Assembly: GCF_006345805.1 (NCBI RefSeq)
Contig: NC_043010.1
Location: forward strand, 59,210,001-59,274,000
Length of the DNA stretch: 64,000 nt
Direction: 5' to 3'
Source: Octopus sinensis
Taxonomy: Eukaryota
The notes below the pieces were generated by a model. The model was not told the origin of the DNA and searched no databases. It saw nothing but the letters and a program-made list of their open reading frames with translations. Shown one piece after another: positions 4,121 through 62,243 of the stretch; positions within the stretch are counted from its first letter, which is position 1; the number at the start of each line of letters is the position of its first letter. Made by a program: the position numbers and the translations under genes.

Positions 4121-4438
4121 ATTTAGTATTATTATTATTATTATTATTAACATTATATATTAATATAGATATGATGCTATAAATCTTTTGTAAATGTTAG
4201 TAATCGCAGCTTCTTTATTTCATTTAATTTAACTATATGCAATATGTAAGTATAAATATGTATGAATTTAAATAAGGAAATTAACATTAGACTCAAGAAA
4301 ATATAATTAAACATTAAGATAATTATAATTTTCAGTAATCTTCATGTGAATAGATGAACATTACACAATCTCACTTTCTTCCTTATGTTAGTCTAAGGTA
4401 TTTTGCTTACTGAAATCAATATTAAATAGGGTATCTCC

Positions 4439-4878
4439 ATTGGTCTTCTGTTTAGATCATTCAACCAATCAGATTCTCACTGAAACATAGAAAGAAATCA
4501 CTGACAAAGATTACCATCCACATTACTGATGTTATTAAACCAGACACTAATGTTTAACAATAGAATATTGCATTTACACAAACATATATATATATATATA
4601 TCTATATATTTAAATAATCATTGATACCAGGAAACAAACATCCTCTTTAAAGATAAATACATTATCAGATGGACGTACTCCCACAAAACATTCAACTTCA
4701 GTGAGACATGCAACCCTCTCCTAGCAGCAGACTCTCTGCCTGACGTGCTACACTACTCCATCACCATAACAGCCATTGTCACACCATTACAGCAGCACTT
4801 ACAATGGATCTTTCTACAACAATACATCTTTCTCTTTCTCACTGAATAACCAATGATATAATTATTAAAAAGGTAAGT
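4439..4878 (+). promoter_or_regulatory. Putative promoter + non-coding leader exon for gene 2 (module copy A)
   Basis: ATTGG 4439, CCAAT 4465 (21 nt spacer); 167 nt conserved block 4706..4872 containing TGACGTG; ends AAG|GTAAGT. Repeated once per unit; the downstream large exon has an acceptor ~50 nt before its ATG. Confidence 0.75.
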
Positions 4879-6464
4879 TTCCATTTAATCTCTTTTATAA
4901 TCTTATAATGTTTTATTTTATATGATGAATAATTACTTAATCGTTAAGATATTCTAGCATAGTTAATATTAACAGGAGAACAAAGACATAAAGCAATAAT
5001 TCACACATATTCCTCAGTATTGTTGAGAATATTGTTTTATACCCCAATTAATTAAATGAAATTGGTTAAAATGTCCCATAGTTAGACAATATTATTTGTA
5101 TGCTTATAACATAGTGCTGCGATGTCTGTGTGTTTGTGTGTGTGTTTTTGTTGTGCGGAAGATGTTATATTGTTTATATAGTAGATGGTTAAATGAAAGT
5201 TATGTCAAGGTGTTAGATATAAAATATGCAGAAGTATTCTACAGTATCTTTAAATTTGGGTTTAATCTATCACTTGCGAGCAGTGGTGTAATAATGGTGG
5301 GGTATACATTTTAGTGAACAGTAATGGTGGACAAATTAAGATTCACAGCTGCCAAGCAGTGACTAGAAATGTTGGCATGTCGTAGGTGGCTGTAAAATTG
5401 CAAAGACTTAATGTAGAAAATATTGATATTGCATGTGTTTGTGTCCAAAGCATATTTGTAAGTCATAGTAACATTTTATTTCTTTTTAAACATGACTCTC
5501 CTATTTTTCTTCCCCTTATAAATTCTTTGTAGTCACAATTTTGAATTGTTTTTTATGCTGTCCATTCCAATATTTAGTTATGAATTTTTGGGGGGTTTTT
5601 TTGAGATTAAAGCTATAATTTTACAGAAATGGAAGTTGATGTATATTTTGAATATTATGTCTACAATTAAAATTGAAAGCTATTCATCATCATCGTCATT
5701 ATGATTATTATCATTATCACCATCATCAACATAATTATTCTCTTGCCATTCTTCTGATCTGAGAGATTCATTATTTAACAGTGCTACTCCACAGAGGCTA
5801 GTATAAAAAGCATATTTATAAAATGACCATTGTGAACCTATTTTGAAACTTAGATTCTACAATTTCATTTTTGATATTCTTTTCTTTCATCATTACTTTT
5901 CTTTCTGAATCTTTAAAATGGTTCTATTTTCAATTCCAACCTGGTCCTATTCAAATCTTTATTACTGAACTGTCTTTGCGAACATTATCAAATATGATAG
6001 TTTCAGAACAATGACTTTTGCCATAAATCTCAGAATTTTTGGAACTTTTTTGATATACATGAACATTGAATGATACGTGCAGTGATTCACTGATTGCTTA
6101 TATTTGATAGGGGTTTATAGAAACTAGAGTTAGACTCATATTTTTGAGGAAGCAGAAACATTCTTCTTTAATATAAAAGCTACAAATATTTCTATGAATT
6201 GTCTTCAAACTTGAGAAATATTACAAATTGTGTGTTGTAAACAGATATAAATATGAGGTTAGTGGTTATTGATAAAATATACTTAAAATTCAGACAGACT
6301 GTTCTAGTGTGACTCCCTTTAAAGAGATGATGTTTACATACAAACAAATAAAATTTAAATTGAACAGTATAGGGTGACTGTTAAAACTGTCTTGAAAGCT
6401 GTGAAGTACGAGTATTCATATTTAAAACAGGATCAGTGTAAGATTTTGCACCAACCAATTATGG

Positions 6465-6678
6465 CCATTGCCAGCCCACTCTGGCCCCTGTGCTGGTGGC
6501 ACATAAAAAGCACCCACTACACTCTCGGAGTGGTTGGTGTTATGAAGGGCATCTAGCTGTAGAAACACTGCCAGATCAGACTGGAGCCTAGTGCAGCCTT
6601 CTGGCTTTCCAGGCCCCAGTTGAACCATCTAACCCATGCCAGTATGGGACACGGACATTAAACGATGATGTTGATGAT
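6465..6678 (+). mobile_element. Retroposon 3' end with (GAT)n tail (RTE-like LINE 3' UTR family; other copies ~7510-7753, 8740-8950, 9320-9470, 20350-20530, 37500-37816, 40040-40210, 46040-46245)
   Basis: Shared tggcacataaaaagcaccc...gtggttggcattaggaagggcatccagctgtagaaac...ccaacccatgccagcatggaaa..ggacgttaaa(gat)n; the same sequence ends the LINE fragment at 9573-10695. Confidence 0.75.
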
Positions 6679-7764
6679 TTGTGCAAAGGTAGTAATAGAT
6701 TGTTTGATATCCAATATCCAATGAAAGAAATCTCTCTTGTCTTTTAATGCTATTTAATTTAGAATACCCCCATTGTACACAGTTCTATATCAATAATATT
6801 GATAGATTAAAAGATTAAAGTTGTTGTATAAAGATTAAAGATGTTTGTTCTGTATAATCTATTAACTCTACCAAAGTTAATATGTTTTATATTTAACTCT
6901 CTAAATAACCAACTTGAAATGCTGTTATCGTTTGTTAAGATGCTTAACAAAGAGGTGGGGTTGCATCAATTTCAAAAGACCAGAGGTGTCTGGCATGGCT
7001 GGATCTGGCCTGCAATGTTTAGTCTCAGCCAGGCTCTCTTCCTCCCGTTACCTTACTTCCCCCCACAAACCACCTCCTTCCTGCACCTCCTCTCCCTTCC
7101 TTCTATTGCTCTCCGTCATCAACTCCTCGCTTACCTGCTATCACCCTCAATGACCTATGCCCTCCTCTACTGCAACCCCTACCCCCTGAGCCTCTCCCAT
7201 ATTTTTCTCCTTTATTTGCTACAGTTACTTCATCTTGCCAATTCACTCAGCCTAACCCTCTACATCACCTCACCTATTCTCACCACCACAAGGGCCCTGT
7301 TCTGATGCATCTTTGCCATCACCTCTCTCTTTATCTCACACTCCTTTGTTTTCCAGCTGGAGTGGCCATGTATCTACTCTACAGCAAGACACCTATATCT
7401 GTCCCCATTATACCTTAAATCTTTCAACTAGCACAAAGCTACGACCCCTCAATATTACTCCCAGCTCTCAGTTGAGGTGGTTTTGCTTTTCAAGGTACTT
7501 GATGACCCTGTTGATGCTGGTGCCACATAAACATTTCCAGAGCTGGTACAAGTAAAAAGCATTGGTGCTGGTGCCACATAAAGAGCGCCCAGTACACTCT
7601 GTAAAGTGGTTGGGGTTAGGAAGAGCATCCAGCTGCAGAAACCATATCGAAACAGACAATGGAAACTGGTGTGGCTCCTGGTCTCGCCAGCTTCTGTCAA
7701 ACCACCCAACCCATGCTAGCACGGAAAGCAGATGTTAAATGATGATGATGATGTTTTGTAAAAC

Positions 7765-7795
<31 letters not shown>

Positions 7796-9572
7796 CAAAA
7801 TGGGACAAGAACGCAAAACATCCAGTTAGACGATACGAAAAACACAGACGGGTCATTCGAAGCCTTTAATCTTCAGTAAAGAACTGGATCATCCTCGCAA
7901 TTTTGGCTGATTAATCTTGATATATATACATATATCATCATCATCATCGTTTAGCGTCCGCTTTCCATTCTAGCATGGGTTGGTTATGCAACTGTCTAAG
8001 GGATAGATATATCCGTAGGCACTCAGTATGTATAGTCCTTATCCTTATTAAAAGGTATATATATTAAAAGGTAGTAGGTAATTTAAAGGTAAAACCGTGG
8101 TTTAATATATAGAGAGAGGATAAGAAATGGAGCAATAATTAATAATCAGAAGAGGATCATTGGTGTTTTAAAGTCATTGTTTAATTAAATTATATATATA
8201 TATATCTCATTAGTATTCATTTAGAGATGGAGTCTAATTAGAATCATGATTCTAGAGTCGGAGCCTGACTAGAGTTGTGATTCCAGTTCTGATTAGTGGA
8301 ATCAGTGGACCTTGGGTGATACCAGAAACGAATTTTATGAATTAATGTACAGAAAGTTGGGACCTATTTTTCCTTCACTTTGTATACACCAAACTAAATT
8401 TTTTTTTTTAAAAATTTTGGGGGGTTTTTTTCCTTCAGTTTTTGCTGTATTTGTTCCCCTTAAGTTTACACATGTTTGTCCAAGTGGATTCTAAATGATA
8501 GGGGAATGATATTGAAAAGTTTTACATCTGAAACATTGCAAGCTTTCTATCAAACATTTCTTTTCTGAAGGACTCTAGGCATTCATTGAGATAACTTCTA
8601 TTTCTCTTGTCACTCTAAAGACTCTTAAACAATAAGAATCTATATATATATAGCATGTGGATGAGTTGTTCCTAGTGAACACCTCATGTTCTTTCCCTTC
8701 TTTATTTTTTATAAATTTAAAATGTATAATTGAATAGTCGTGGCTGGTACCTGTGTTTTGTAACTGGTGCTTGTGCTGGTGGTACGTAAAAAGCACCTAC
8801 TACACTATTGCAGGGCATCCAGCTGTAGAAACCTTGCCAAATCAAACTGGAACCCCCCCCCCCCCCCGTTTACCAGTTTTCAGTCAAAACCGTCCAACCC
8901 ATGCTGGCATGGAAAACGGACGTTAAATCATAATGATGATGATGATGATGGTGCCTTTGACCTACAATATGAATAGAGTTACTTGGAAAAATTCTCACTC
9001 TAGCCTGTTATAACTGGTCCAGTCCACAAACCCAAATGAATCTGAGACTCCTGTTCCAGGAACACAGACTGTAAGAAGGATTCTTTGGTGCAAACTTGCA
9101 AGAATTGTACTCATAAATTCAACGTTGCTATTTCTTCTTCAAATATTTGCCTTGATAAGGGACATAACTCATATGCATCTAAATAAATATTGACATCAAT
9201 TGTTTTTTCTTGGTTTTTAAATTGATATCTTCATTCAAGTGGATTCGTAATAAGCCATTAGTTGATGTGTTGAATTATTCTTTCTTCTGTTTTATGCATG
9301 ATAACTATTACAATATATCAGCTGGGTGGTTGGTATTAGGAATGGCATCCAGCCGTAGAAATACTGCCAAAACAGACAAATCTGATGTAGGTTTCTGCCT
9401 GACTGGCTCCTGTCAAATCGTACCCCAGTTGCCAGCATGAAAGCCAGACCGTAAACGATGATGATGATGATATAGGAAGTGAAATTATGTTACAAAATTA
9501 GCCTTTTATATTCTAATTATTTCTTATGCATTATTTTTATCTTTTTATGTCAGTTGGAACTGGGAACTGGGT

Positions 9573-10695
9573 AGATAGTTTTTGTGTGTGGCAGATGCAC
9601 AGGGACAATAAACACTGAAAATGTGCAGAGAACAGCTTCCGTTACATGCCAGGGAGAAAAACTAGAAGTAGTTGATAGCTTCTGTTACCTAGGGGACCAA
9701 GCCAGAACCGGGGGTAGATGCTCTGAAAGTGTAGCTGCTAGAATAAAAATAGCCTGGGCAAAGTTTGGAGAGCTCCTACCTCTGCTGGTAGCAAAGGACC
9801 TCTAGCTCAGGGTGAAAGGTAGACTGTATGATGCATGTGTACAAATAGCCATGCTACATAGGCTGTGACTACTGAGGACATGCGTAAGCTTGCAAGAAAT
9901 GAAGCTAGTATGCTCCACTGGATGTGTAATGTCAGTGTGCACACACGGCAGAGTATAAGTGCCCCGAGAGAAAAGTTGGACATAAGAAGCATCAGATGTA
10001 GTGTGCAAGAGAGACAACTGCAATGGTATGGTCTAGTGCTGTATATGGATGAGAGCAGTTGTGTGAGAAAGTGTCACACCATAACTGTGGAAGAAACCTG
10101 TGAAAGAGGTAGACTCAGGAAGACATGGGATGAGGTGGTGAAACCTGATCTTTGAACGTCAGGCCTCAGGGAGGCAATGACAAGCAACTGGGACCTTTGG
10201 AGATATATTGTGTTTGAGAAGACTCGGCAAGCCAAGTGAGACAGTAGCTGTGGCCTATGCTAGTGTTGCATAACTTGCCCATTTAAGAGTACCCTTCAAT
10301 CATTGGGCAATATCCTGTGCTTGAGAAGACCTGTTGAGTCAAGTGAAATCATTGTTGTGGATGATGCCAGGGCCATCTGACTGGCCCCTGTGCCGGTGCA
10401 CATAAAAAAGCACCATTTGAGCGTGGTTGATGCCAGTCCCACTGGACTGGCCCCTGTGCTGGTGGCACATAAAAAGTACCATTCGAGCATGGTCAATGCC
10501 AGTACTGCCCAACTGGTGCCTGTGCTGGTGGCACCTAAAAAGCACCCACTACACTCTCGGAGTGGTTGGCATTAGGAAGGACATCCAACTGTAGAAACCT
10601 CGCCAAATCGGATTGGAGCCTGGTGCGGCCTTCCGGCTTGCCAGTCCTTAGTCAAACCATCCAACCCATGCCAGCCTGGAAAGCAGACGTTAAAC
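9573..10695 (+). mobile_element. 5'-truncated, decayed RTE-clade non-LTR retrotransposon (post-RT region + 3' UTR with internal repeats)
   Basis: Translates to ...LEVVDSFCYLGD...ARIKIAWAKFGELLPLL...KGRLYDACV...EASMLHWMCNVS...LQWYG...RGRLRKTWDEVV, typical of the RTE RT C-terminal region; contains stops and frameshifts. Confidence 0.85.
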
Positions 10696-10999
10696 CTCCC
10701 ATCCTGTATCATCACTCTCAGCATTTGAACATTGATTCTCTCATGCTGGCATGAATGTGTGTGCGTCTTCTCCAGTTTCACATGTCTCTAACCATCCCAG
10801 TCCTTTATGTCATCTCCTCTATGAGCTTCAACATCCTGAGATTAGACTTCATCACACCACACCTTTCTACAGTTCCCCTTGTCCCCAGGTTCCATCCTGA
10901 ACTTCTTTATACAGCTGTCAAACTCCATATGCATTACATTCCTGTACCAGTGCAGGCTTCTCTCCTGCTTGCTATATCTGATTATTCTTATATCTAGTT

Positions 11000-11580
11000 A
11001 TTTCCATCATTCTCTAACTTCACCTTGCTTCTATCAAAAGTGTCCATTTACAACCAGCCAAGGACTTTCTCAGCTTGTATGTCTTCCTTCTTTAAATTGT
11101 CTTCTGCTTCTTGGTCCATCAAGCTCTTGCTCTGAACTCACAATCACTCATCTCTACTTGGGGATATATTCTTCATCAAGAAAAGACTTAGCATTTACTT
11201 AGAACCATCAGCCTATCCTGTTTCTTGATTACAATAAAGTCTTTCTGGTTTGTATGTTCACATGATTGGTAACTGACCAGGTAACAAATCACTTTACTGA
11301 ATTTAACGAGGAAAGTAGTTTGGCCGTTTACATCAAAGAACTCTACAACTCTTCATCCATCCTCATTTCTCACAGCATTCCCATTGCTTCCATGTACACC
11401 ACAGAAGCGATCATGGTATTACCCAATTTCCCATTATAATCTCCACTTGTAATTATGAGGTCACCATCATTCATCACCAAGAGCGTTAGTAGGAAGACGT
11501 CTTAGAAATGAGCCTTTCATTTGACAGACCAGTGTGTGGAGTATAACTGCTGTTGTCTTGTCTATGATTAGCTGAAGCTT
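11000..11580 (-). mobile_element. Decayed AP-endonuclease region of an RTE-like LINE
   Basis: Reverse strand gives fragments SYTPHTG, LIITSGDYNGKLG, GVHGSNG, RNEDG, VVEFFD, TNQKDFIV, resembling APE motifs (YAP, GDFN.HVG, RN.EG, QIDYIL). Confidence 0.65.
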
Positions 11581-11823
11581 AATTATTTTATTTGCTATTT
11601 TCTTTGTAATTAACCTTGGCTTAATTATTCTATGTTTACTTTTATGATAATTATTTCTATATATTTTCTTAAAATAGTATTATGTATCAGAGATAACAGA
11701 CCTATGAGTGTTTTAATCTATTTTGAAATGAGATTGTAATAATTTATGAAATATATTTCTCCTTTAGGTTCAATCTACTTATCTACAATTCTTTAATCAG
11801 TAACAACAGGCAGCAGCAACAAA

Positions 11824-14800
11824 ATGCTCCTGTCATTGACCTTTGTATTGTCGCTGGTCCACTGTGTCCTGACCATAGACCTCACCTACCATGTGGAAGA
11901 AGAAAGAAGTCCTGGAACATATGTAGCAGACATTGCTGCCGATTCTAAACTTTTAGACAATGTTAAACCATCTGACCAACATTTGATAACATTCAGTCAA
12001 TTCAAACGAAAGGTGGCACAGTTATTTAACATCACCAAAACAGGTAAACTGTACACTGCTCAGACACTGGATGCAGAAGATCTCTGCACATTCAACAAAG
12101 AATGTTCTAGAACTATGAAAGTTATTATAAAGAAAGTGGCAACATTCACAAAAATATTAAAAGTCAAAATAGTAATAGAAGATATTAATGACCATGAACC
12201 AGAGTTTCCAGAAAAACAAATCACTCTACATTTTGAAGAAGGTGATGGGAGAGGAATGAAAAAATCAATTCCAAATGCCATAGACAAAGATGTGAGTTAT
12301 CAAAATTCTTTCATTGAATATAAACTTAAAAAATCTGATGATTCATTTTCCCTGACAGTTTCTAAAAGAGCTGATGGTATTTCATCATTAAAGATTGTTT
12401 TAAAAGAAAAATTAGACCGAGAGATAAAAGAGAAATACAATTTAGAAGTTATTGCTAAAGATGGAGGTTCTCCATCTAAACAGAGTGTGTTAAATGTTGA
12501 GATTGTTGTTGAAGATGAGAATGATAATCCACCTGTATTTTCAAAACCCCTTTATAATATTTCCATTAGAACTACACACGATAAGACAAAACCCATTCTT
12601 ACTTTGTCAGTGACAGACAAAGATATTGGATCCAACAGTAAAATTACTTTCCATTTCAGCCCCAAAACTTCTGATTTGGCAAAGAAATATTTCGAATTGG
12701 ATAAAAAGATTGGCAAAGTATTTTTATCTAGAATTTCTAGTTTGAATGAAAAAAATACTTTTGAATTATTTATAGAGGCCAGAGATGGAGGTAAGCCACC
12801 ACTCAGTTCCATAGCAACTGTTCTGATAAATGTTATCAACCAACACAACAATCCTCCATCTATTGATATTGATTATGTTAATGCAATCAATGACAATACA
12901 GGTACCATCTCTGAAAAGATCAAAGTCGGTAGTTTCCTTGCTTATGTGATGGTCACTGACAATGATGTGGGACAAAATGGAGAGGTCAGCTGTGATATCA
13001 AACATGATACATTCAAACTACAGTCAATGGGATCTAAAGAATATAAAATCATTCTAAACAAACCAGTGGACAGAGAAACACAAGGACACTATAACATTCC
13101 TGTCTCCTGTCAAGATAAAGGATTACCTCCTCTTAAAAGTGTTAAAAGCCTCTCTATCCAAGTGACTGACATCAACGATGTACAACCACAGTTTACCAAA
13201 GATACATTCCAATTCCTCACCTACGAAAACAAAGATAAAGACTTCCCTATTGGTTTTGTCAATGCCACGGACCCTGATCTTGGATCTGCTGGACAACTCA
13301 CGTATTCTCTGCTGCGTAAAGAAAAATCCAATCTCCCATTTCTCATCACCAGTTATGGCTTCATTTCAGCGACCATGTCATTGGACAGAGAGAAACAAGA
13401 TGTGTATAAGTTTGAGGTTTTTGTCAAAGACAATGGAAGCCCATCTCTGAATGACACAGCGAATGTTGTTGTTGAGATTCTAGATCAAAATGACAATGCT
13501 CCGTATTTTACATATCCTAGTAGTGACCCTTACACGCTAAATGTGCAGTACCATCCGCAGAGTAAGAGTGACATCACAGTTTTGAGAGCCTCTGATGGGG
13601 ACAGTGGAAACAATGCTTTCCTCAGATATGCAATCATACAAGGAAATGCTAAACAGTTGTTTAGTATGAACTCACACAGTGGTGCTTTATCCTTCTCCAG
13701 ACAAGTTTATCTAAATGATGCTGGAAGTTATGGGCTGGTGTTTGTTGTGAAGGACAGTGGTAGTCCAGTTCAGTCGTCAACAACTAGTGTCACTTTGGTA
13801 TTGGCTGTTAGTAACGAGACATCACCAATGTCGAAGAGTGGACCTTTACAATCTTCAGGTCGGGTCCATATGACATGGGTTATTATCATTGTATCATCAG
13901 CAGTAATAATATCAGTGGCTATTGTTGTTTCTATAACGCTGTGTATTATGAAATGTATTAAACACAGAGATAACACAGCTGCTGCCACAAAGAATACAGC
14001 CTACCAAGGTAGAGCAGAGATGAAACAATTGTTGTACCAGACTAACACTTCTGTTGCTATGTCGAGGAATGCAGAAGAGATGGTGAAGCGGAATATCTAT
14101 TCTGAGAGATCCAAGAGTGAATGTTATGCAGAAGGTCAGCTACAGAACAAATATGAATCTTCAGTTCAGTCGAGAACTTTACCAAAACCTACCCCAGTAA
14201 GTGGAAACATTACATTTTCTCTCTGTAAAAGTGAACAATGAAATCTCTTTGAATATGTTTTAACTTCAATAATACATTCCAATATTAAATTGTTCTCTTT
14301 CCATGTTGATTGTAACTTCCATTGTTTGGTGTCTTCTCACATTTCTTTATCGTTTGTTTGTCAACAGAAATACTGTCAACCTGTTGTGGTGACATCAAGT
14401 GATGATGCTGTGGAAGATAATGCTACTATGGTTTGTAACTATACATCAGATACAATGTCGTCCAAGAGAAGTGGTAGACAAGGAGACTTGAAACATTACG
14501 AAGAAATACCAGGAGTATCAGGTTAGCAACTTCATTTGCTATTTTCTACCTGGATATCACCTCAAAGATAGACCTGTATTATGAAGAATTACTAAAATAT
14601 ATATAAATTTGTTAATGAATAAGTATTACATTTATATTCCAGATTCTCATGCATGCAAGAAGTCATTCTTAAACTTATATTTTACATCATTTCCACATTA
14701 TTCAGTTTGCCTGGTGACATATTCCAGAACATGATTATCTTATTAGTTCCATTTGAAATGTTTTTTTATCAATTTGATTCTAATATTATGATATGAAGAA

Positions 14801-15525: not shown

Positions 15526-15963
15526 AGTGGCTTTCGGTCGTAATCATTCAACCAATCAGATTCTCACGAAAACAGAAAAATTCATTAACAAAGATAAGCT
15601 TTCACATTACTAGTGTTATCAAATTAAGCAATTATGTTATGTTTCACTGACTAATTTTTTAGCTATTTTAATATTTATCTATCTATCTATCTAATATATA
15701 TATGTAAATAGTAAACATCATCTTCAAGGATAAATACACGCAGTCTATTATCAGATGGATGTACTCCCACAAGCATACAACTTCAGTGAGACATGCAACC
15801 CTCTCCTAGCAGCAGACTCTCTGCCTGACGTGCTACACTACTCCATCACCATAACAGCCATTGTCACACCATTACAGCAGCACTTACAATGGATCTTTCT
15901 ACAACAATACATCTTTCTCTTTCTCACTGAATAACCAATGATATAATTATTAAAAAGGTAAGT
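15526..15963 (+). promoter_or_regulatory. Putative promoter + leader exon for gene 3 (copy B)
   Basis: AGTGG (variant) 15526, CCAAT 15552; block 15791..15957; donor GTAAGT 15958. Confidence 0.75.
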
Positions 15964-26855: not shown

Positions 26856-27279
26856 ATTGGTCTCCTGTTTCGATCACTCGACCAATCAGATTCGGGATAA
26901 AACACACAACAATTCACTAACAAAGCCAAGCCTTCACATCACTAATGTTATTATCCCAAACAGTTATGTTCTGTTTCAGTATAAACAAAATTCTAGCTAT
27001 TTAAATATATATCCATGTAAATAGTAAACATCTTCTTTGAGGACAAATACATGCACAGAATACTATTAGGTGGACGTACTCCCACAAAACATACAACTTC
27101 AGTGACACATGCAACCCTCTCCTAGCAGCAGACTCTCTGCCTGACGTGCTACACTACTCCATCACCATAACAGCCATTGTCACACCATTACAGCAGCACT
27201 TACAATGGATCTTTCTACAACAATACATCTTTCTCTTTCTCACTGAATAACCAATGATATAATTATCAAAAAGGTAAGT
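26856..27279 (+). promoter_or_regulatory. Putative promoter + leader exon for gene 4 (copy C)
   Basis: ATTGG 26856, CCAAT 26882; block 27107..27273; donor 27274. Confidence 0.75.
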
Positions 27280-35274: not shown

Positions 35275-35681
35275 ATTGGTCTTCTGTCACGATCATTCAA
35301 CCAATCAAATCCACAATAAAACATAGAAAAAATTCACTAACAAAGCTAAGCACTCACATTGCTGATGTTTTTAAGCCAAACAATTATGTTCTGTTTCACT
35401 CTGTAATATTGTAACTGCTCAAATATATACCTAAATAACAAACATCATCTTTAAGGATAAATACACACAGGATATTATTAGGTGGATGTACTCCTGCAAA
35501 CATACAACACATGCAACCCTCTCCTAGCAGCAGACTCTCTGCCTGACGTGCTACACTACTCCATCACCATAACAGCCATTGTCACACCATTACAGCAGCA
35601 CTTACAATGGATCTTTCTACAACAATACATCTTTCTCTTTCTCACTGAATAACCAATGATATAATTACTAAAAAGGTAAGT
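35275..35681 (+). promoter_or_regulatory. Putative promoter + leader exon for gene 5 (copy D)
   Basis: ATTGG 35275, CCAAT 35301; block 35509..35675; donor 35676; lacks the 9 nt ttcagtgac that precedes the block in other copies. Confidence 0.75.
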
Positions 35682-45098: not shown

Positions 45099-46999
45099 AT
45101 TAATCAGCTGTTGAAGCAACGACGACCTTTTGCTATGTGAATAGATGAACAGTCATATTAGTACACACACACACACACAGACTTAACACACTCATTACTT
45201 ATTAATCTGTGCTATATAGTAAAGACAGGCTGTTGATAAATTAGCAATAATTCGGATAAATAAACACAAAGTTCTGCAAACCATTAGCTTCCCTTCGAAT
45301 CAATGTAAGCTTCTGTATTGTAATTATATTTATTTTACATGAATTACTAGAAATATATATCTACACTTCTTGAAACCATGCCTTATTTTAAACACAAATA
45401 TATTGTTTATAACAATAGTTTATCATCATCATCATCATCACTATCAGTTCTCAATGAAATAGTACCAGTCATGTTCTGGGTTTCATTCAGTCAGCTGTTT
45501 CATCAAATTTATGCTTTTGTCAATATGCTAGACATTGTTATTATTATTAATATTTTTGTTATTAAGGCAATGTGCTGACAGAATCCTTAGAGAACTGGAA
45601 AAAAACTGCCTCTGCAATATTTGTTCTTACTCTTAATCCCGCTGGGATTAACTTTGCCTTTCATTCTTTTGTGTTGATAGAATAAAGTAGCAGTCCAGTC
45701 CTGGAGTTGATGATACTGACTAACTCCTTCCCTTCTGCCTAAATTAGAAACCAGTATTTTTATTACTATTATTTGAGAGTTTGCTCTGAAACAGCGTACC
45801 ATCAGCTTTCCTTCTCAACCACTCTTACCCCTTCCAGTATATTGTTGGGCAGCCACTTATCCCTTCTGTACCAAGACACCTATGTTTGTCCCTTTAGTTT
45901 TGGCATAAAGCCACCACCCCCACCTTTGGCATAAAGCCACCACTTTTGAATACTCTTCCTCACTTGGTAGCAAGAGCTTTTCCTTTTTCTTTTTCTGTTC
46001 TTTTTTATCTACTTTGTGAGTCATTTAGCAACCTGACTCATGCCAGTGGCACAAAAAAAGGCACCCTGTACACATGGTAAATTGGTTGATCTTAGGAAGG
46101 GGCATCTAGTCACAGAAACCCTGCCAAAGCTGATGCTGAAGCTCAGCATAGCCCTACAGCTTGCTGGATCATGTCAAACTATCCACTCATGCCAGCACGG
46201 AAAACAGACATATAATGAGGATGATGATAATGAGGATGATGATGAAAGGATTGGCAAAATGCTTCTGAGTAGTGTTTATATGTATTTAGTTACATCCCCT
46301 TACAATCTGAGTTCAAATCCTGACTACATCAACTTTAGATTCCTTCCTTCTGATGTTTATGTACCATTCTAATATTGGGATTGATGTAATTGACTATACT
46401 CTATACCAAAATTCTGAAGTTTTGTGCTGAATTTAGAAATCCTTATTAAGGTAGAGGATTTGCAGAATCTACTGGTTGCTAGGACATAAAACCCTGCAGT
46501 TTTTAGATGCAACCCTTTACATTCTGAAATCAGTCTAATCAAAACCGTTTTTGCTTTCATTCTCAATGTAAGTACCAGTTAGGGACCTGGCTTCAAAATA
46601 ATCTTTCTCATTTTTACTACCTCAGAATCTGTGATTTAATATACAAATCATTAGTATGTGGCTGTTTCTTGAAATGAAATTATAATGTTTAATCGATAAT
46701 AATTCTTTATTTCATAAAAACCTAACAATGAACAATATTTCTACTAAATTACAAATCTCAATCTTATATATTCTCGTGACAAAGTAGAAGTTTTCATATT
46801 GAAACATTCATGTAAACACAAATTTAGAATTACTAACACTGAATTTCTAGGAGTAATATATTTCAGCATAAAAACTGTTTATTAATGCCAGTAATCCACA
46901 TGGAAATGGATCAACATCACACTATCTCACTTTCTTCAATGATTAAATAATTTCTAATCTGTTTTAGTTAACCAAATCAATATCAAAGAGAAGATTGCC

Positions 47000-47432
47000 A
47001 TTGGTCTTCTGCTTAAGTCATTCAGCCAATCAGATTCCCACTGAAATATAGAATAAAATCACTAACAAAGAGAAACATTCACACTACTGGTGCCATTAAA
47101 CCAAGCAGTTATGTTTAACTATAGAATATTGAAGCTATTTGAATATAGATGTGTGTGTGTGTGTGAATAACAGTAAACAAACATCATCTTTGAGGATAAA
47201 TACATGCACAGAATATTATTAGATGGACATACACTCAGAAAACATACAACTTCAGTGACACATGCAACCCTCTCCTAGCAGCAGACTCTCTGCCTGACGT
47301 GCTACACTACTCCATCACCATAACAGCCATTGTCACACCATTACAGCAGCACTTACAATGGATCTTTCTACAACAATACATCTTTCTCTTTCTCACTGAA
47401 TAACCAATGATATAATTATCAAAAAGGTAAGT
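47000..47432 (+). promoter_or_regulatory. Putative promoter + leader exon for gene 6 (copy E)
   Basis: ATTGG 47000, CCAAT 47026; block 47260..47426; donor 47427. Confidence 0.75.
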
Positions 47433-49693
47433 TTCTCTTTAATCTCTTTTATAAATCTCATTTGATGCAATAAATCTCACTGAACTTGAAACAATATTGT
47501 TCTAACATATTTGATGTTGACAAGAGAATAAAAGAATTAATATAATACACTCATATTTTATGGTAGTGTTGTTCATATTTTTTTATGCCATAATTAATTG
47601 GATGACGTTGATAAAAGTATTTCATATTTCAACTTTATTCTGTTGAAACACTAACATCCATGGCTGTAGAATATTTGATGCATGAACAGATTAATAACAG
47701 TAGGCAGCTGTCTGTATAACGTAGTGTAGCAGTGTTTTTGTTCAGAAGATGAAATTTTGTGTCTGTATTTATGGAAAGTTACAAAAAGTTGTTTGATATA
47801 GAATATGAAGAAATATACTATAGTCTTTTTAAATCTGTTTTATAATTTGTGGATTCATAGCATTGATGCAGTAACATTGTGTTACAGATTTTTAATGTGG
47901 AATAATGGTCAATAGCAAAGGAAATTAGTGAATAGAAATGGTGGCTTGTTGTAGAAAAGACAAGGACTAGTTTAGTGTAGAAAAGGCAGAATGCTGGCAA
48001 TATCTTTGTATGTTTCCTTTAAATATATTTATGTCTAAATCATAGTAATTTTTAATGTTTTTAAACTTAATTTTTTTGTATGTGTGTGATTTAATTATTT
48101 GTGTAATTTCTGTCTAAAATTTCAGTTATATATATTTTTTGTCAAATATTTCCAATGATGAAATTCTGTTACAGTATGTGAACATTTAAAACCCAATATT
48201 TTACAGAAGTTAACGATCAAGTGTATTTTCAATACAAATTTAATAGATCATATTGAAAGCAATCTGTCTTTAGGAGGATTTTCATCACTGTAAGGCATGT
48301 CTGATGAGTTGGAAATTTCTAATTTTGCTTAGTTATTACGGAAGGACTTGGTGCTTTTTTATTATTATTGTATTCTATGACCCATTGTAACGTTTCTATT
48401 TAAATTATAATGTTCTATGTATAAATATGTTTTTATATAATTTGCATAAACTGCCACTTTTTATAATCTGTAGTCATCAAAATTTACTTAATCTATAACA
48501 CATTAGCTATTTTTTCTCATACGATCTTTAATCTTCAATATTAGTCAATACATGTCATTTTCTAATCTTTATTAGTTGGCTATTTCTGAGAAACAAGGAT
48601 AAACACTTATGTTTAAGAAAACTATTGCAAGCAGACTTTTAATTACATGAAACTATATTAAATTTTATAGTTTATTTCTGAATTCATTTCTTTAGATATG
48701 GGCTTTTATTGTGATTTTATTTTCATGATTATTACTTCTATTTAGACCTGGTTTTAATTATACATTAATTACTTCTTTATCTTTTAAATATAATCACCGA
48801 TAACACGTTTAGTTTCAGAACAAAACTTCACACTCGTAATTATAGGAGTTATTTTAATGTACCAGAACATTGAGAGATGTGGTGACTCAGTTATACATAC
48901 AGCAGTTCTTTTTATATATATGCATAGGAGAAAACATAAGATTCTTTCTTTCTTACAAAGAGAAAACCTTACCCTGAGGTTCACATCCTCCAATGCAAGT
49001 TGTCATAAATGAGTGCAGCCCTTGCATGGGCTCTTTTTCCAATGAGTTCCCATGTCTAAGTCTCTTGCCTCTGTCAAGAGCCACAACTTTGCTAACACAG
49101 AAATTTTCAAAGAAGATGACCCCTGATGTGTGATGGAAAGCAGAATGATTCCAGTAGACGTGTCCCTAGAGAATACACATATCAGATTAATGAATATAGA
49201 AAGAAATATAAATTTGTCAAGTTCATTGTATATTTCATTTTAGGGGTGAACTGTGGGAAAACTTTTGACTGAGTCAGAGAGATTTCATTAGCTATATTTT
49301 TTCTTGACCAAACCTGAGGGATTTCTTTAACTATTGTTTGGTGTTTCAGTATATAAATTTAGGGAGTGTACAAGAAAAGTAATTGTGTTTCACATATCAA
49401 ATTTCAATATTAGCTAGACATTTTATTGAACAACATTCTTGTAGTTTTATGAATAAGAGATTTTTTATATTATGGGAAGGTCATGAGTATTACTAATTCT
49501 TCAATAAAGTTACCTAATACCAACTTAGTAATTCAGATATTATTATATTTTAGAGTGCTGGCCTGGTGCAGTTTTCCTTTCCAAATCTGTAAATATATTT
49601 ACTTGTCTGATAATAAGAATTTAAGAAAGTATATTTCTGTTTTAGGTTTATTCTTCAACTCTCCTGAACACCTTTATCTGGTTCCAACACAAC

Positions 49694-52600
49694 ATGTTAC
49701 TGTCGTTGTCTATTGCATTGTCGCTGGTCCACTGTGTCCTGACCATAGACCTTACCTACCACGTGGAAGAAGAGAGAAGTCCAGGAACCTATGTAGCAGA
49801 CATTGCTGCCGATTCTAAACTCTTAGACAATGTTAAACCATCTGACCAACATTTGATAACATTCAGTCAATTCAAACGAAAGGTGGCACAGTTATTTAAC
49901 ATCACCAAAACAGGTAAACTGTACACTGCTCAGACACTGGATGCAGAAGATCTCTGCACATTCAACAAAGAATGTTCCAGAACTATGAAGGTTGTTGTCA
50001 ATAAAGGAACCAGTGTTTCAAAAATATTAAAAATCAAAATTGTTATAGAAGACATCAATGACCATGAACCAAAATTTCCTAAGATTAAAATCAATATGCA
50101 GCTTGCAGAGGATATTTCAAAAGGTTCAAAAAGATCGTTACCAAATGCCATAGACAAGGATGTAGGATTTCAAAACTCATTAATACAATATAAATTAAAA
50201 TCAAAGAATGGAGAACTATTCTCTCTGTCAGTGTCTAAAAGAGCAGATGGTATTTCTTCTCTTAAAATAGTTTTAAAAGAATCATTAGACAGAGAAATCA
50301 AAGATACATATTTATTACAGGTCATAGCTAAAGATGGAGGGTCACCAGCAAAACAAGGAATTTTAAACATAAATATTTCCATAACAGATGTTAATGACAA
50401 CCCACCTGTATTTTCTAAACCTCTATACAATATGTCTATACAAAGTACACATCACAAATCTAAACCCATCATTGTTTTATCTGTGAGTGATGCTGATTCT
50501 GGTGAAAATGGTAAAGTTACTTTCCATTTCAGTCCAAAGACATCAGATGTAACAAAAAGCTATTTTCAGTTAAATGAAACCAGTGGAAGCATTTTATTAA
50601 GGGAATATTCAAAATTAGGGAAAAAGAAAACTTATGAATTGTTTATAGAGGCCAGAGATGGAGGTATTCCTCCTCTCAGTTCCATAGCAACTGTTCTTGT
50701 GAATGTCATCAACCAACACAACAATCCTCCTTCTATTGACATAGATTATGTTTCTACACAGAATCACAACACAGCTACCATCTCTGAAAACATCAAAGTC
50801 GGTAGTTTCATTGCTTATGTGATGGTCACTGACAATGATGTGGGACAAAATGGAGAGGTCAGCTGTGATATCAAACATGATACATTCAAACTACAGTCAA
50901 TGGGATCCAAGGAATATAAAATCATTCTAAACAAACCAGTGGACAGAGAAACACAAGGACACTATAACATTCCTGTCTCCTGTCAAGATAAAGGATTACC
51001 TCCTCTTAAAAGTGTTAAAAGCCTCTCTATCCAAGTGACTGACATCAACGATGTACAACCACAGTTTACCAAAGATACATTCCAATTCCTCACCTACGAA
51101 AACAAAGATAAAGACTTCCCTATTGGTTTTGTCAATGCCACTGACCCTGATCTTGGATCTGCTGGACAACTCACATATTCTCTGCTGCGTAAAGAAAAAT
51201 CCAATCTCCCATTTCTCATCACCAGTTATGGCTTCATTTCAGCGACCATGTCATTGGACAGAGAGAAACAAGATGTGTATAAGTTTGAGGTTTTTGTCAA
51301 AGACAATGGAAGCCCATCTCTGAATGACACAGCGAATGTTGTTGTTGAGATTCTAGATCAAAATGACAATGCTCCGTATTTTACATATCCTAGTAGTGAC
51401 CCTTACACGCTAAATGTGCAGTACCATCCGCAGAGTAAGAGTGACATCACAGTTTTGAGAGCCTCTGATGGGGACAGTGGAAACAATGCTTTCCTCAGAT
51501 ATGCAATCATACAAGGAAATGCTAAACAGTTGTTTAGTATGAACTCACACAGTGGTGCTTTATCCTTCTCCAGACAAGTTTATCTAAATGATGCTGGAAG
51601 TTATGAGCTGGTGTTTGTTGTGAAGGACAGTGGTAGTCCAGTTCAGTCGTCAACAACTAGTGTCACTTTGGTTTTGGCTGTTAGTAACGAGACATCACCA
51701 ATGTCAAAGAGTGGACCTTTACAATCTTCAGGCCGGGTCCATATGACATGGGTTATTATCATTGTATCATCAGCAGTAATAATATCAGTGGCTATTGTTG
51801 TTTCTATAACGCTGTGTATTATGAAATGTATTAAACACAGAGATAACACAGCTGCTGCCACAAAGAATACAGCCTACCAAGGTAGAGCAGAGATGAAACA
51901 ATTGTTGTACCAGACTAACACTTCTGTTGCTATGTCGAGGAATGCAGAAGAGATGGTGAAGCGGAATATCTATTCTGAGAGATCCAAGAGTGAATGTTAT
52001 GCAGAAGGTCAGCTACAGAACAAATATGAATCTTCAGTTCAGTCGAGAACTTTACCAAAACCTACCCCAGTAAGTGGAAACATTAATATTTTCTCTCTGT
52101 AAAAGTGAACAATGAAATCTCTTTGAATATGTTTTAACTTCAATAATACATTCCAATATTAAATTGTTCTCTTTCCATGTTGATTGTAACTTCCATTGTT
52201 TGGTGTCTTCTCACATTTCTTTATCGTTTGTTTGTCAACAGAAATACTGTCAACCTGTTGTGGTGACATCAAGTGATGATGCTGTGGAAGATAATGCTAC
52301 TATGGTTTGTAACTATACATCAGATACAATGTCATCCAAGAGAAGTGGTAGACAAGGAGACTTGAAACATTACGAAGAAATACCAGGAGTGTCAGGTTAG
52401 TAAATGTATTTGCTATATTTTGCTCCGAAATTGTCTGAAATGTAAATATTTATTGACAACTAAATTTAAAAGTCTATAATACTGTCCAATATTTGGTTAT
52501 TAGTTTATGTATATACATAAATGTATCCCCTTGTTATTTCAAGAACACTTTGTAGTTATTTGTTCGAGCAATATGTTTGTATCTTCCCTTTTATAATGTT

Positions 52601-52856
52601 TGAAAGAATTTGACAAAATGTTATCTCTCTGATTTCATATATCTGACAAAATGCCTCTTTCCAGAGATGGACCTTTTGATATATACTGTTCTGATGGCAA
52701 GGGTGGGGTTAATATCGTAGAAATTGATGTTCACTTCCATGATTTTGTAAATTTTATTTATTTATTTTCTGTTTCTCAGATCAAAATATTTATAAAAACA
52801 ATGATAATTCTACATCAAAAGATTCCAGTGAAGAAACACCAGTGAAACATGTATAA
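49694..52856 (+). CDS. PCDH: Protocadherin gene 6, join(49694..52069,52242..52395,52780..52856), ~868 aa
   Basis: 802 aa ORF; acceptor ttttag|49646; last exon DQNIYKNNDNSTSKDSSEETPVKHV*. Confidence 0.93.
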
Positions 52857-53477
52857 TAATAATATTAGCAAAACAGCAACTATTTTCCCCTTTGTGACTG
52901 GAAAACATAGTGCTTAGTACACAACCACCATCTCAACTTTATTTTTGCTACACCGTATTGTGTATACATAGGAAGACTGAGTGTTACAAGATTAGCTACA
53001 AAAATATTATTCCCTTATTGGAAAATGAATTTATATTGAAAAATGCGCACACACACACCACACACACACACACATTAGAGAAAATATTTCTGCTACCATA
53101 TTCTGATTTTTGAGAGATAGGTCCAAATATATATCTAATTCTAAATGTTACTAATGCTTTCTGGAACTCTACAAATGCCACACATTATTTTTTTTTTCAC
53201 TTTTACTATAATATGAAGCATTCAGGCTACTAATAAAGATATCAATTTTAAAAGTAGTCAACCAACAAAATGAAATGTTCTTCTGTATTTAGTTACATTT
53301 CTCTACATTTTGCATTGAGTTCTGTCAGTGTCAACTTTGCCATTCAGTCTTTACAGAGTTAAAAAAAATAAAATACCAGTAAAATACAGGGTTTGCTATA
53401 ATCAACTGTGCCCCTCCTCACCACAAAATCTGAGGCTTGTGCATTCTTAAGAAATCAATATTATACAGAACATCTTC

Positions 53478-53922
53478 ATTGGTCTTCTGTTTAGCTCATG
53501 CAGCTAATCAGATTCTCATTAGCACAGAAAGAAATTACTAAAAAAGAGAAGCAGTCCCGTTATTAATGTTATTAAACCAAATAATTATGTTGAGCAATTG
53601 ACTATTGCAGTTATATAAAAATGTATCTATATCTGTACGTGTATGAAAATAGTCATTGACAATAGCAAACAGACACCATCTTTAAGGATAAATACATGCA
53701 GACTATTATTAGATGGACATACTCCCACAAAACATACAACTTCAGTGACACATGCAACCCTCTCCTAGCAGCAGACTCTCTGCCTGACGTGCTACACTAC
53801 TCCATCACCATAACAGCCATTGTCACACCATTACAGCAGCACTTACAATGGATCTTTCTACAACAATACATCTTTCTCTTTCTCACTGAATAACCAATGA
53901 TATAATTATTAAAAAGGTAAGT
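53478..53922 (+). promoter_or_regulatory. Putative promoter + leader exon for gene 7 (copy F)
   Basis: ATTGG 53478, CTAAT (variant) 53504; block 53750..53916; donor 53917. Confidence 0.75.
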
Positions 53923-61827: not shown

Positions 61828-62243
61828 ATTGGTGTTCTGTCTAGACCATTCAACCAATCAGATTCTCTTCAAAACATAAAAAGAAATCACTGACAAAGAT
61901 AAGCCTTCCCATTACTGATGTTATTAAATCAAACAATTATGATTAACTATAGGTTATTGTAGCTATTTGAATATGTAAATGTTTATGTAAACATCATTTT
62001 GAAGGATAAATTCATGCAAAATATTATTAGATGGATGTACTAATAACATTGAACATACAACTTCAGTGACACATGCAACCCTCTCCTAGCAGCAGACTCT
62101 CTGCCTGACGTGCTACACTACTCCATCACCATAACAGCCATTCTCACACCATTACAGCAGCACTTACAATGGATCTTTCTACAACAATACATCTTTCTCT
62201 TTCTCACTGAATAACCAATGATATAATTATTAAAAAGGTAAGT
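61828..62243 (+). promoter_or_regulatory. Putative promoter + leader exon for an eighth protocadherin beyond the window (copy G)
   Basis: ATTGG 61828, CCAAT 61854; block 62071..62237; donor 62238; no cadherin exon follows within the window. Confidence 0.7.

Follow-up and report, generated by a model that had tools for sequence, protein, structure and literature searches.

The question raised by this locus is why a non-coding element of 167 nt recurs, almost without change, once for each gene of an octopus protocadherin (Pcdh) array, and whether it is an exon, a promoter or a by-product of sequence homogenization. The window, i.e., the whole stretch of 64,000 nucleotides from Octopus sinensis that was analyzed (NC_043010.1, positions 59,210,001 to 59,274,000), contains seven Pcdh open reading frames of 802-834 amino acids, two of which were scanned and both matched Pfam Cadherin and Cadherin_2. 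They are part of a protocadherin supercluster on C14 near C2H2 genes, a neighborhood also described by Albertin 2022 (PMC9068888). The excerpts of that paper, to which, as for all papers cited here, our statements refer, depict coleoid Pcdh sub-arrays as head-to-tail series of multi-exonic, closely related genes on one chromosome and suggest homogenization by gene conversion together with duplication of whole genes that share no exons. Both the arrays and the proposal of gene conversion were known before. What is new is that neighboring sub-arrays each possess a homogenized leader of their own and that these leaders are homologous.

One leader copy per gene

The initial annotation had listed seven copies of the element, each exactly 167 nt up to the splice donor GTAAGT, and all of them match. 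They represent the invariant 3' part of a non-coding leader exon, correspond to copies 12-18 of an array of 23 and lie on the + strand at 4706..4872 (donor at 4873), 15791..15957, 27107..27273, 35509..35675, 47260..47426, 53750..53916 and 62071..62237, the gene belonging to the last one beginning past the window end. Three copies are identical (the 15791 copy has the same sequence as that at 4706) and four carry one substitution apiece, exactly the diagnostic SNPs that had been named, at leader position 161 in copies 14 and 16, 160 in copy 15 and 73 in copy 18; the claimed distance of 0-1 base from the consensus is correct. That the element occurs nowhere else in the window agrees with a blastn search at word size 7, in which the best stray match had E = 0.10. 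Inner motifs of the 4706 copy include TGACGTG (4741) and TGTCACAC (4777), and the leader contains three short uORFs, all ending within it. An Rfam scan of window positions 4200-5100 gave no real match (best E = 0.94), and RNA folding of the leader was no better than that of shuffles (z = +0.23).

In the genome, all 24 scored matches to the leader (counts that are lower bounds) fall within C14:59.09-59.34 Mb, 23 of them full and one partial, on a leader-bearing stretch of ~240-245 kb that constitutes a single protocadherin array, array A; as had been maintained, the element is not a dispersed repeat or transposable element. Across the 454 kb that were fetched, the 23 leaders strictly alternate one-to-one with 23 gene starts. 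Ten of the 23 are identical, and nucleotide diversity (pi) over the 23 genomic copies is 0.0054, with four segregating substitution sites, versus 0.19-0.49 further upstream than -20 and 0.35 for intron positions past +30, so the flanks are indeed far more diverged. The edges are graded (pi 0.042 at -20..0 and 0.058 in the first 30 intron nt), and the mean identity of the array A flanks is 65%.

As to which gene owns the leader, A-type leaders stand ahead of genes with an A-type EC1 only; behind those A-type tails that lie at the 3' end of the array, the leader is diverged or missing. In array E (see below) every gene has a leader ahead of it and the last gene has none behind it, and in array B the first gene is without a B leader and two leaders follow the last gene, 73 kb ahead of the next gene. 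A Pcdh remnant lies 5 kb upstream of the first A leader. Broken Pcdh remnants with tails 98-99.6% identical to the array were seen at C14:59,072,038, 59,086,656-59,087,345 and 59,345,657, with two long LINE-like ORFs near the first remnants, and on account of the first two of these places the polarity argument that no Pcdh lies upstream of the first leader was dropped.

The leader is a spliced 5'-UTR exon

All seven Pcdh genes of the window have an acceptor 48-56 nt ahead of the ATG, as the initial annotation had stated. Behind the 4706 leader, intron 1 (4873..11767, +) leads to a large exon (11768..14196, +) comprising a 56-nt UTR, the ATG at 11824, a signal peptide, EC1, EC2-3 and the EC4-6/TM/cytoplasmic part. 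Intron 1, from leader to acceptor, measures 2,219-7,325 nt in the six units that the window contains in full, in agreement with the 2-7 kb given earlier, and over the whole array the leader lies 2-10 kb upstream of the ATG.

Splicing was followed in contigs of sequencing runs from other organisms, in which the leaders are collapsed and only units 16 and 17 of array A are covered; RNA status is on record for X20 and was assumed for X6, X14 and X18. In unit 16, RNA contigs jump from 47428 to 49690, just ahead of the ATG (X6 at 55x, X18 at 5x), the support consisting of one contig per run with sides of 28 and 35 nt and unknown letters between. This joint is absent from the DNA run X11 and is not among the joints listed for X14. 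In the unit 16 runs, the depth of the leader bin is 37-1709 versus 0.7-37 in the following intron bin. In unit 17, X6 and X20 contigs depart from the genome at the donor as loose ends, whose best alignment, when compared with the regions upstream of the fetched plus-strand genes, is to the exon-2 UTRs of array A (24/27 and 24/30 letters). The leader depth in X6 (1257) is near that of the Pcdh constant tract (910-1295). Because RNA contigs join the donor to a Pcdh ATG exon and the DNA run does not, the leader is a spliced 5'-UTR exon of protocadherin genes; it is transcribed and array-specific, and its reading as an exon is solid. The anticipated splicing from this donor to Pcdh acceptors is thus borne out by the joint in X6 and X18 and by the loose ends in X6 and X20, and from the proposed first exon/core promoter the spliced leader (47428>49690) can be retained, whereas the core promoter is not supported, since RNA extends further upstream.

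The same RNA-like runs also contain GT..AG joints for two further introns besides intron 1, so that the genes consist of four exons. In unit 16, the large exon (49646..52069, +; ATG at 49694) is joined (52069>52242, GT..AG) to exon 3 (52242..52395, +), which encodes a homogenized part of the cytoplasmic tail, and the coding part of exon 4 spans 52781..52857 (+; stop at 52855-52857). An alternative donor at 52041, 28 nt upstream of the main one at 52069 and likewise joined to 52242, is used in three RNA-like runs and would frameshift the cytoplasmic tail. Units 5, 7, 19 and 23 of array A fail the intact-frame filter and contain either assembly indels or pseudogenes.

RNA upstream of the leader and candidate promoter elements

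RNA contigs reach at least 20-36 nt upstream of the 167-nt block, often hundreds of nt and in some cases >600 nt, with similar depth per unit. They begin at 47224 in X14 and at 47240 in X18. In X6 they cover 53088-53712 at 17-31x, in the 3' UTR/promoter interval 52858..53749 (no strand assigned), and much of 45105-47232 at 16-37x, versus 0-5x in intron 1 of these two units past its first ~300 nt (this initial bin has 37x in unit 16). One X6 contig (32.6x) links an upstream stop codon with the CCAAT region that follows it, and in X20 a contig continues for 358 letters on the upstream side of 53673; the cover of X14 and X18 is close to nil (0-1.2x) between the previous last exon and the leader. 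Since these contigs carry no strand, single-molecule or 5'-end information, the RNA may come from long 3' UTRs that overlap, from read-through splicing or from antisense transcription, and in many molecules the leader may not be the true first exon. The possibility raised in the initial annotation that the element belongs to the upstream 3' UTR applies in part, namely inasmuch as RNA is continuous from the upstream last exon in one deep run.

One way to read this continuity, which we consider rather unlikely, is a read-through joint: the last exon of the upstream gene would run into the leader, whose donor would splice to the next gene, giving rise to chained bi- or polycistronic RNAs, and the leader would then act as a coupling inside the RNA no less than as a first exon. 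The high cover upstream of the leader against the low cover of intron 1 in X6 and the long X6 and X20 contigs are in line with such RNAs, and PMC9712504 notes that PCDH gene models had been fused by read-through transcripts and needed manual correction. However, overlapping tandem transcripts would look alike in unstranded contigs, and the continuity stems from one deep run and one X20 contig and is not seen in X14 and X18. Chained RNAs of this kind would, moreover, be predicted NMD targets.

A better promoter candidate than the leader, applicable to array A only, is an inverted CCAAT pair ~250 nt upstream, which may have an NF-Y role. ATTGG-N20/21-CCAAT is found 234-278 nt upstream of the leader in 19 of the 23 array A units, and the other four have a pair with a shorter spacer (one unit) or a single retained box (three units). 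In the window, ATTGG-N21-CCAAT occupies 4439..4469 (no strand), further pairs are located at 26856, 35275, 47000 and 61828, and one CCAAT box is changed ahead of the leaders at 15791 and 53750. The inverted pair was not found in arrays B and E. Among 41 matches to ATTGG-N19-22-CCAAT, 20 were set aside as a coding coincidence at ~ATG+1979, and 2 lie elsewhere. The transcription start would lie ahead of the 167-nt block, perhaps at a distance of 60-100 nt behind the CCAAT pair.

At the other end of the leader, ATTAAA finishes 3 nt ahead of the donor in 14 of the 23 copies (window positions 4864-4869 and the equivalent positions of the other copies), and the two most frequent leader SNPs change it. 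A composite poly(A)/donor site was considered; X6 has no cover beyond the donor, yet contigs lose short tips.

Homologous leaders in other sub-arrays share a motif core

Arrays B (C14:59,516,673-59,875,900) and E (C14:60,493,413-60,728,400) each have a uniform leader of their own, as well as their own constant tails. The 39 leaders of array B (pi 0.011) are 168-nt blocks ending at the donor and are uniform even ahead of genes whose EC1 are just 61-72% identical. The array E leader (24 copies examined, pi 0.014) contains a CAG/CAC-rich insertion, and its uniform tract also takes in 150 nt on the upstream side and the first 160 nt of the intron. A core profile built from six of these leaders detected 99 cores for 106 plus-strand gene starts (cores per gene starts in five stretches: 67/66, 0/1, 1/1, 5/11 and 26/27), none for six minus-strand genes and none in a reversed-sequence control. 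The minus-strand genes form a group of six Pcdh genes at C14:58,560,001-58,640,000 without a leader-core match. Twelve representative leaders share TGAC(T), CCATCAACATA, TTGTCACAC, CAGCAG, ACAATGGATT and the donor, and the motifs are kept in diverged, unconverted copies of array D and in singletons. We tentatively label TGACTCA/TGACGT as AP-1/CRE-like and TGTCA as TALE-like. With a 22-nt degenerate pattern, matches were obtained in array A, in one diverged copy and at one stray site only; a 16-nt pattern gave 126 matches versus 7 in the control, and among the 100 listed, 84 fall in the C14 cluster and 16 elsewhere.

Between arrays A and B, 40 of the 46 nt of a core that was picked by blast after the fact match, as compared with 70 of 160 fourfold sites that differ (P = 8e-6). 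Over the whole leader, the 101 matches between A and B are modestly above those of shuffled sequences (mean 86.9, maximum 99 in 200 shuffles). These sequence comparisons suggest that purifying selection on a short core is likely, added to conversion.

Two further observations concern leaders outside array A. Array B leaders (L068-L103) contain an ATG 6 nt ahead of the donor. For the nine genes computed out of 19, this ATG is predicted to share the frame of the Pcdh ORF with no intervening stop in two, to share it with a stop in one and to be out of frame in six; paralogue-specific translational control by this ATG is possible. Furthermore, up to four leader-like exons, two of them weak matches, at C14:59,874,429, 59,875,690, 59,893,979 and 59,908,854 lie upstream of the lone gene at 59,949,024, the interval being free of Pcdh, and may be alternative first exons or remnants of lost genes.

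The leader might also be a functional analogue of the conserved sequence element (CSE) of vertebrate Pcdh promoters, in the sense that a distal enhancer would select genes stochastically in each neuron from among equal promoter-proximal elements, a tentative idea that we find more doubtful than convincing. It would fit with the single copy per gene, with the motif core conserved at 99 matches for 106 plus-strand genes, and with the divergence of EC2-3 between homogenized tracts (see below), which resembles that in vertebrate clusters (PMC4978886). On the other hand, no CGCT box is present in the leader and just 1 of the 23 regions from -400 has one, a crude regular expression for a CTCF-like pattern matched none of the 23 leaders, and the leader is transcribed and far from the ATG; in addition, PMC9712504 reports that a neuron has ~21 PCDHs, part of them ubiquitous and others specific to cell types, and its excerpts report no stochastic choice. 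The initial comparison with a CSE of the vertebrate type can therefore not be upheld for a spliced element 2.2-10 kb upstream of the ATG that is devoid of a CGCT box and a CTCF-like match; by membership the leader is not a CSE, and by function it may be CSE-like.

Homogenized tracts and probable gene conversion

The leader is near-invariant, as the initial annotation had stated, and it is not the only such block: each unit contains three homogenized tracts, the leader, EC1, and EC4 through intron 2 plus exon 3 (~1.6 kb), and the latter two are almost as uniform as the leader. In 19 of the 23 genes (four with broken frames were dropped), silent diversity amounts to 0.079 in EC1, 0.36 in EC2, 0.42 in EC3, 0.024 in EC5, 0.031 in EC6 and 0.014 in TM plus tail. 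EC2-3 are diverged, with pN of 0.08-0.11 and pS of 0.36-0.42, and the tails are 99% identical among flanks that are ~65% identical. Homogenization takes place at the DNA level, because silent and intronic sites are uniform too, and from this pattern we infer gene conversion. All four leader SNPs are common to copies with unrelated flanks and cluster no better on the flank tree than shuffled labels, in a test of low power on a star-like tree and with a gap included in one label. Conversion would persist where copies stay alike and stop at flanks rich in indels and microsatellites. Two genes past the array (C14:59,352,328-59,364,695) have A-type tails (99% and 97%), a diverged EC1 and a diverged or absent leader, and these mixed tracts imply that conversion domains differ by tract.

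In the runs X6, X2 and X3, which are independent and stem from other organisms, 53750-53907/8 is a single contig with 0 differences, its depth being 98x in X2 and 156x in X3 versus 2.5-8x for flank pieces, although contig depth is a rough guide only to copy number. The leader is the same in these three close organisms and different in the more distant host of X20, where it is diverged and still spliced (19 substitutions plus 9 gap letters in ~200 nt); among the 18 of these 19 substitutions that are listed, none falls in 53779-53804 or 53816-53866. Identity in close organisms was rejected as proof of selection, since the coding tract is likewise without fixed differences at the six sites checked: six apparent coding differences are unit-16 variants (four of them in ≤2/23 copies), and the other organism has the array consensus.

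Because the coding tracts are homogenized at silent sites too, near-identity alone is no proof of function, and the leader could be a neutral conversion island, uniform only since identical copies convert each other and of little function beyond the donor. Silent diversity is almost as low across EC5 to the tail (0.014-0.031), the array E tract extends beyond the leader on both sides, the X20 homologue has accumulated changes, and the leader lacks RNA structure, all of which would suit such an island. Nevertheless, we consider it unlikely: the diversity of the leader (0.005) is below that of silent sites, two arrays have blocks of equal length (167-168 nt) that both stop at the donor, the motifs are kept in unconverted array D copies and singletons, and the listed X20 substitutions spare two inner segments.

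Considerably less probable is that the RNA upstream of the leader is antisense, made from a bidirectional promoter at the inverted CCAAT pair, which is present in 20 of the 23 units, or within the leader. The continuous unstranded RNA would permit this, and PMC7811963 describes such a mechanism for a mammalian Pcdh-alpha antisense lncRNA, but the coverage meets the upstream last exon at about the depth of that exon, for which a long 3' UTR is the simpler explanation. Readings as an assembly or polishing artefact, a transposon fragment or a spliced-leader (trans-splicing) RNA gene, although polishing can homogenize repeats, assembly frameshifts occur in 4 of 23 genes and a short exon plus donor looks similar to a spliced-leader gene, are largely refuted and very improbable, given that three independent runs yield the leader with 0 differences, that its depth in X2 and X3 is well over ten times that of flank contigs, that full copies outside the array and an Rfam match are missing, and that the leader depth in X6 is close to that of the Pcdh constant tract and not higher, as spliced-leader donation predicts.

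The reading we prefer, and hold to be quite probable, is that each Pcdh gene of the array has a spliced non-coding leader, that repeated gene conversion likely keeps the copies nearly identical and that the motif core of the leader is likely under purifying selection. The core (TGAC[T/G], CCATCAACATA, TTGTCACAC, CAGCAG, ACAATGGA) would bind regulators that treat the genes of a sub-array alike, and each gene would place a variable recognition cassette between a leader and a tail that are constant. A bolder version, speculative and in our estimate quite unlikely, is a plug-in system in which ~100 genes carry their variable EC1-3 cassette between constant leader and tail, with one leader type per sub-array, and in which read-through or the firing of any of the equal promoters delivers an identical donor to the next or a more distant cassette. 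If true, recognition molecules would be chosen per neuron through a 5' exon that is constant, which mirrors the vertebrate design with the variable exon first and the constant exons last.

Implications and comparison with known systems

The excerpts of the cited papers make no claim on promoters or choice in independently expanded cephalopod Pcdh arrays. The arrays can be approached through the leader type that marks each sub-array, the core that these leaders share, the CCAAT pair as a promoter candidate and the diagnostic SNPs, which together offer a regulatory handle, and the leader would provide neuronal adhesion genes with a common regulatory front end. A single guide, probe or primer would reach a whole sub-array, and its genes can be distinguished only by EC2-3, the exon-2 UTR and the 3' UTR. 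For these genes, both counts from short reads and dates derived from distances are biased, because tails are 99% identical amid flanks of ~65% identity; the 'recent burst' dated from paralogue distances (PMC9795677) may partly be an effect of conversion. The excerpts of PMC9068888, PMC6339937, PMC9795677, PMC9712504, PMC13218726, PMC7811963 and PMC4978886 do not describe the leader, although the annotation of PMC9712504 may already draw it as 5' UTR.

Arrays of SL RNA genes also repeat a short exon that ends in a splice donor. The octopus leader differs from these in being far longer, in occurring once per gene, in lacking an Rfam match and in that the junctions seen lead to Pcdh exons only. 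Variable sDscam cassettes splice to shared 3' exons, we know of no invariant leader in sDscam, and the protein family is unrelated to Pcdh. The chelicerate sDscam 5' cassettes (PMC6339937) are likewise tandem units of recognition molecules, each with its own promoter. The coleoid sub-arrays of PMC9068888 show the same arrangement as the array studied here, and leader exon, array-specific leaders, shared motifs and domain-level tracts are not described in the excerpts of that paper.

The closest comparison is with vertebrate clustered protocadherins. Like the leader, the CSE is one conserved non-coding block per gene with cluster-specific variants (PMC7811963, PMC4978886). It is, however, a short CGCT/CTCF site ~200 bp upstream of the ATG (same sources), whereas the leader is a 167-nt spliced exon 2-10 kb upstream, near-identical over its full length and without CGCT; the CSEs of some fish and frogs also lack CGCT (PMC4978886). 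Vertebrate alpha and gamma genes splice to shared constant 3' exons, whereas each octopus gene has its own converted copy of the constant part. In vertebrate clusters, EC2-3 escape conversion and EC5-6 are homogenized (PMC4978886), and with its EC2-3 diverged between homogenized domains, the octopus array is convergent with the specificity domains of the vertebrate clustered Pcdh.
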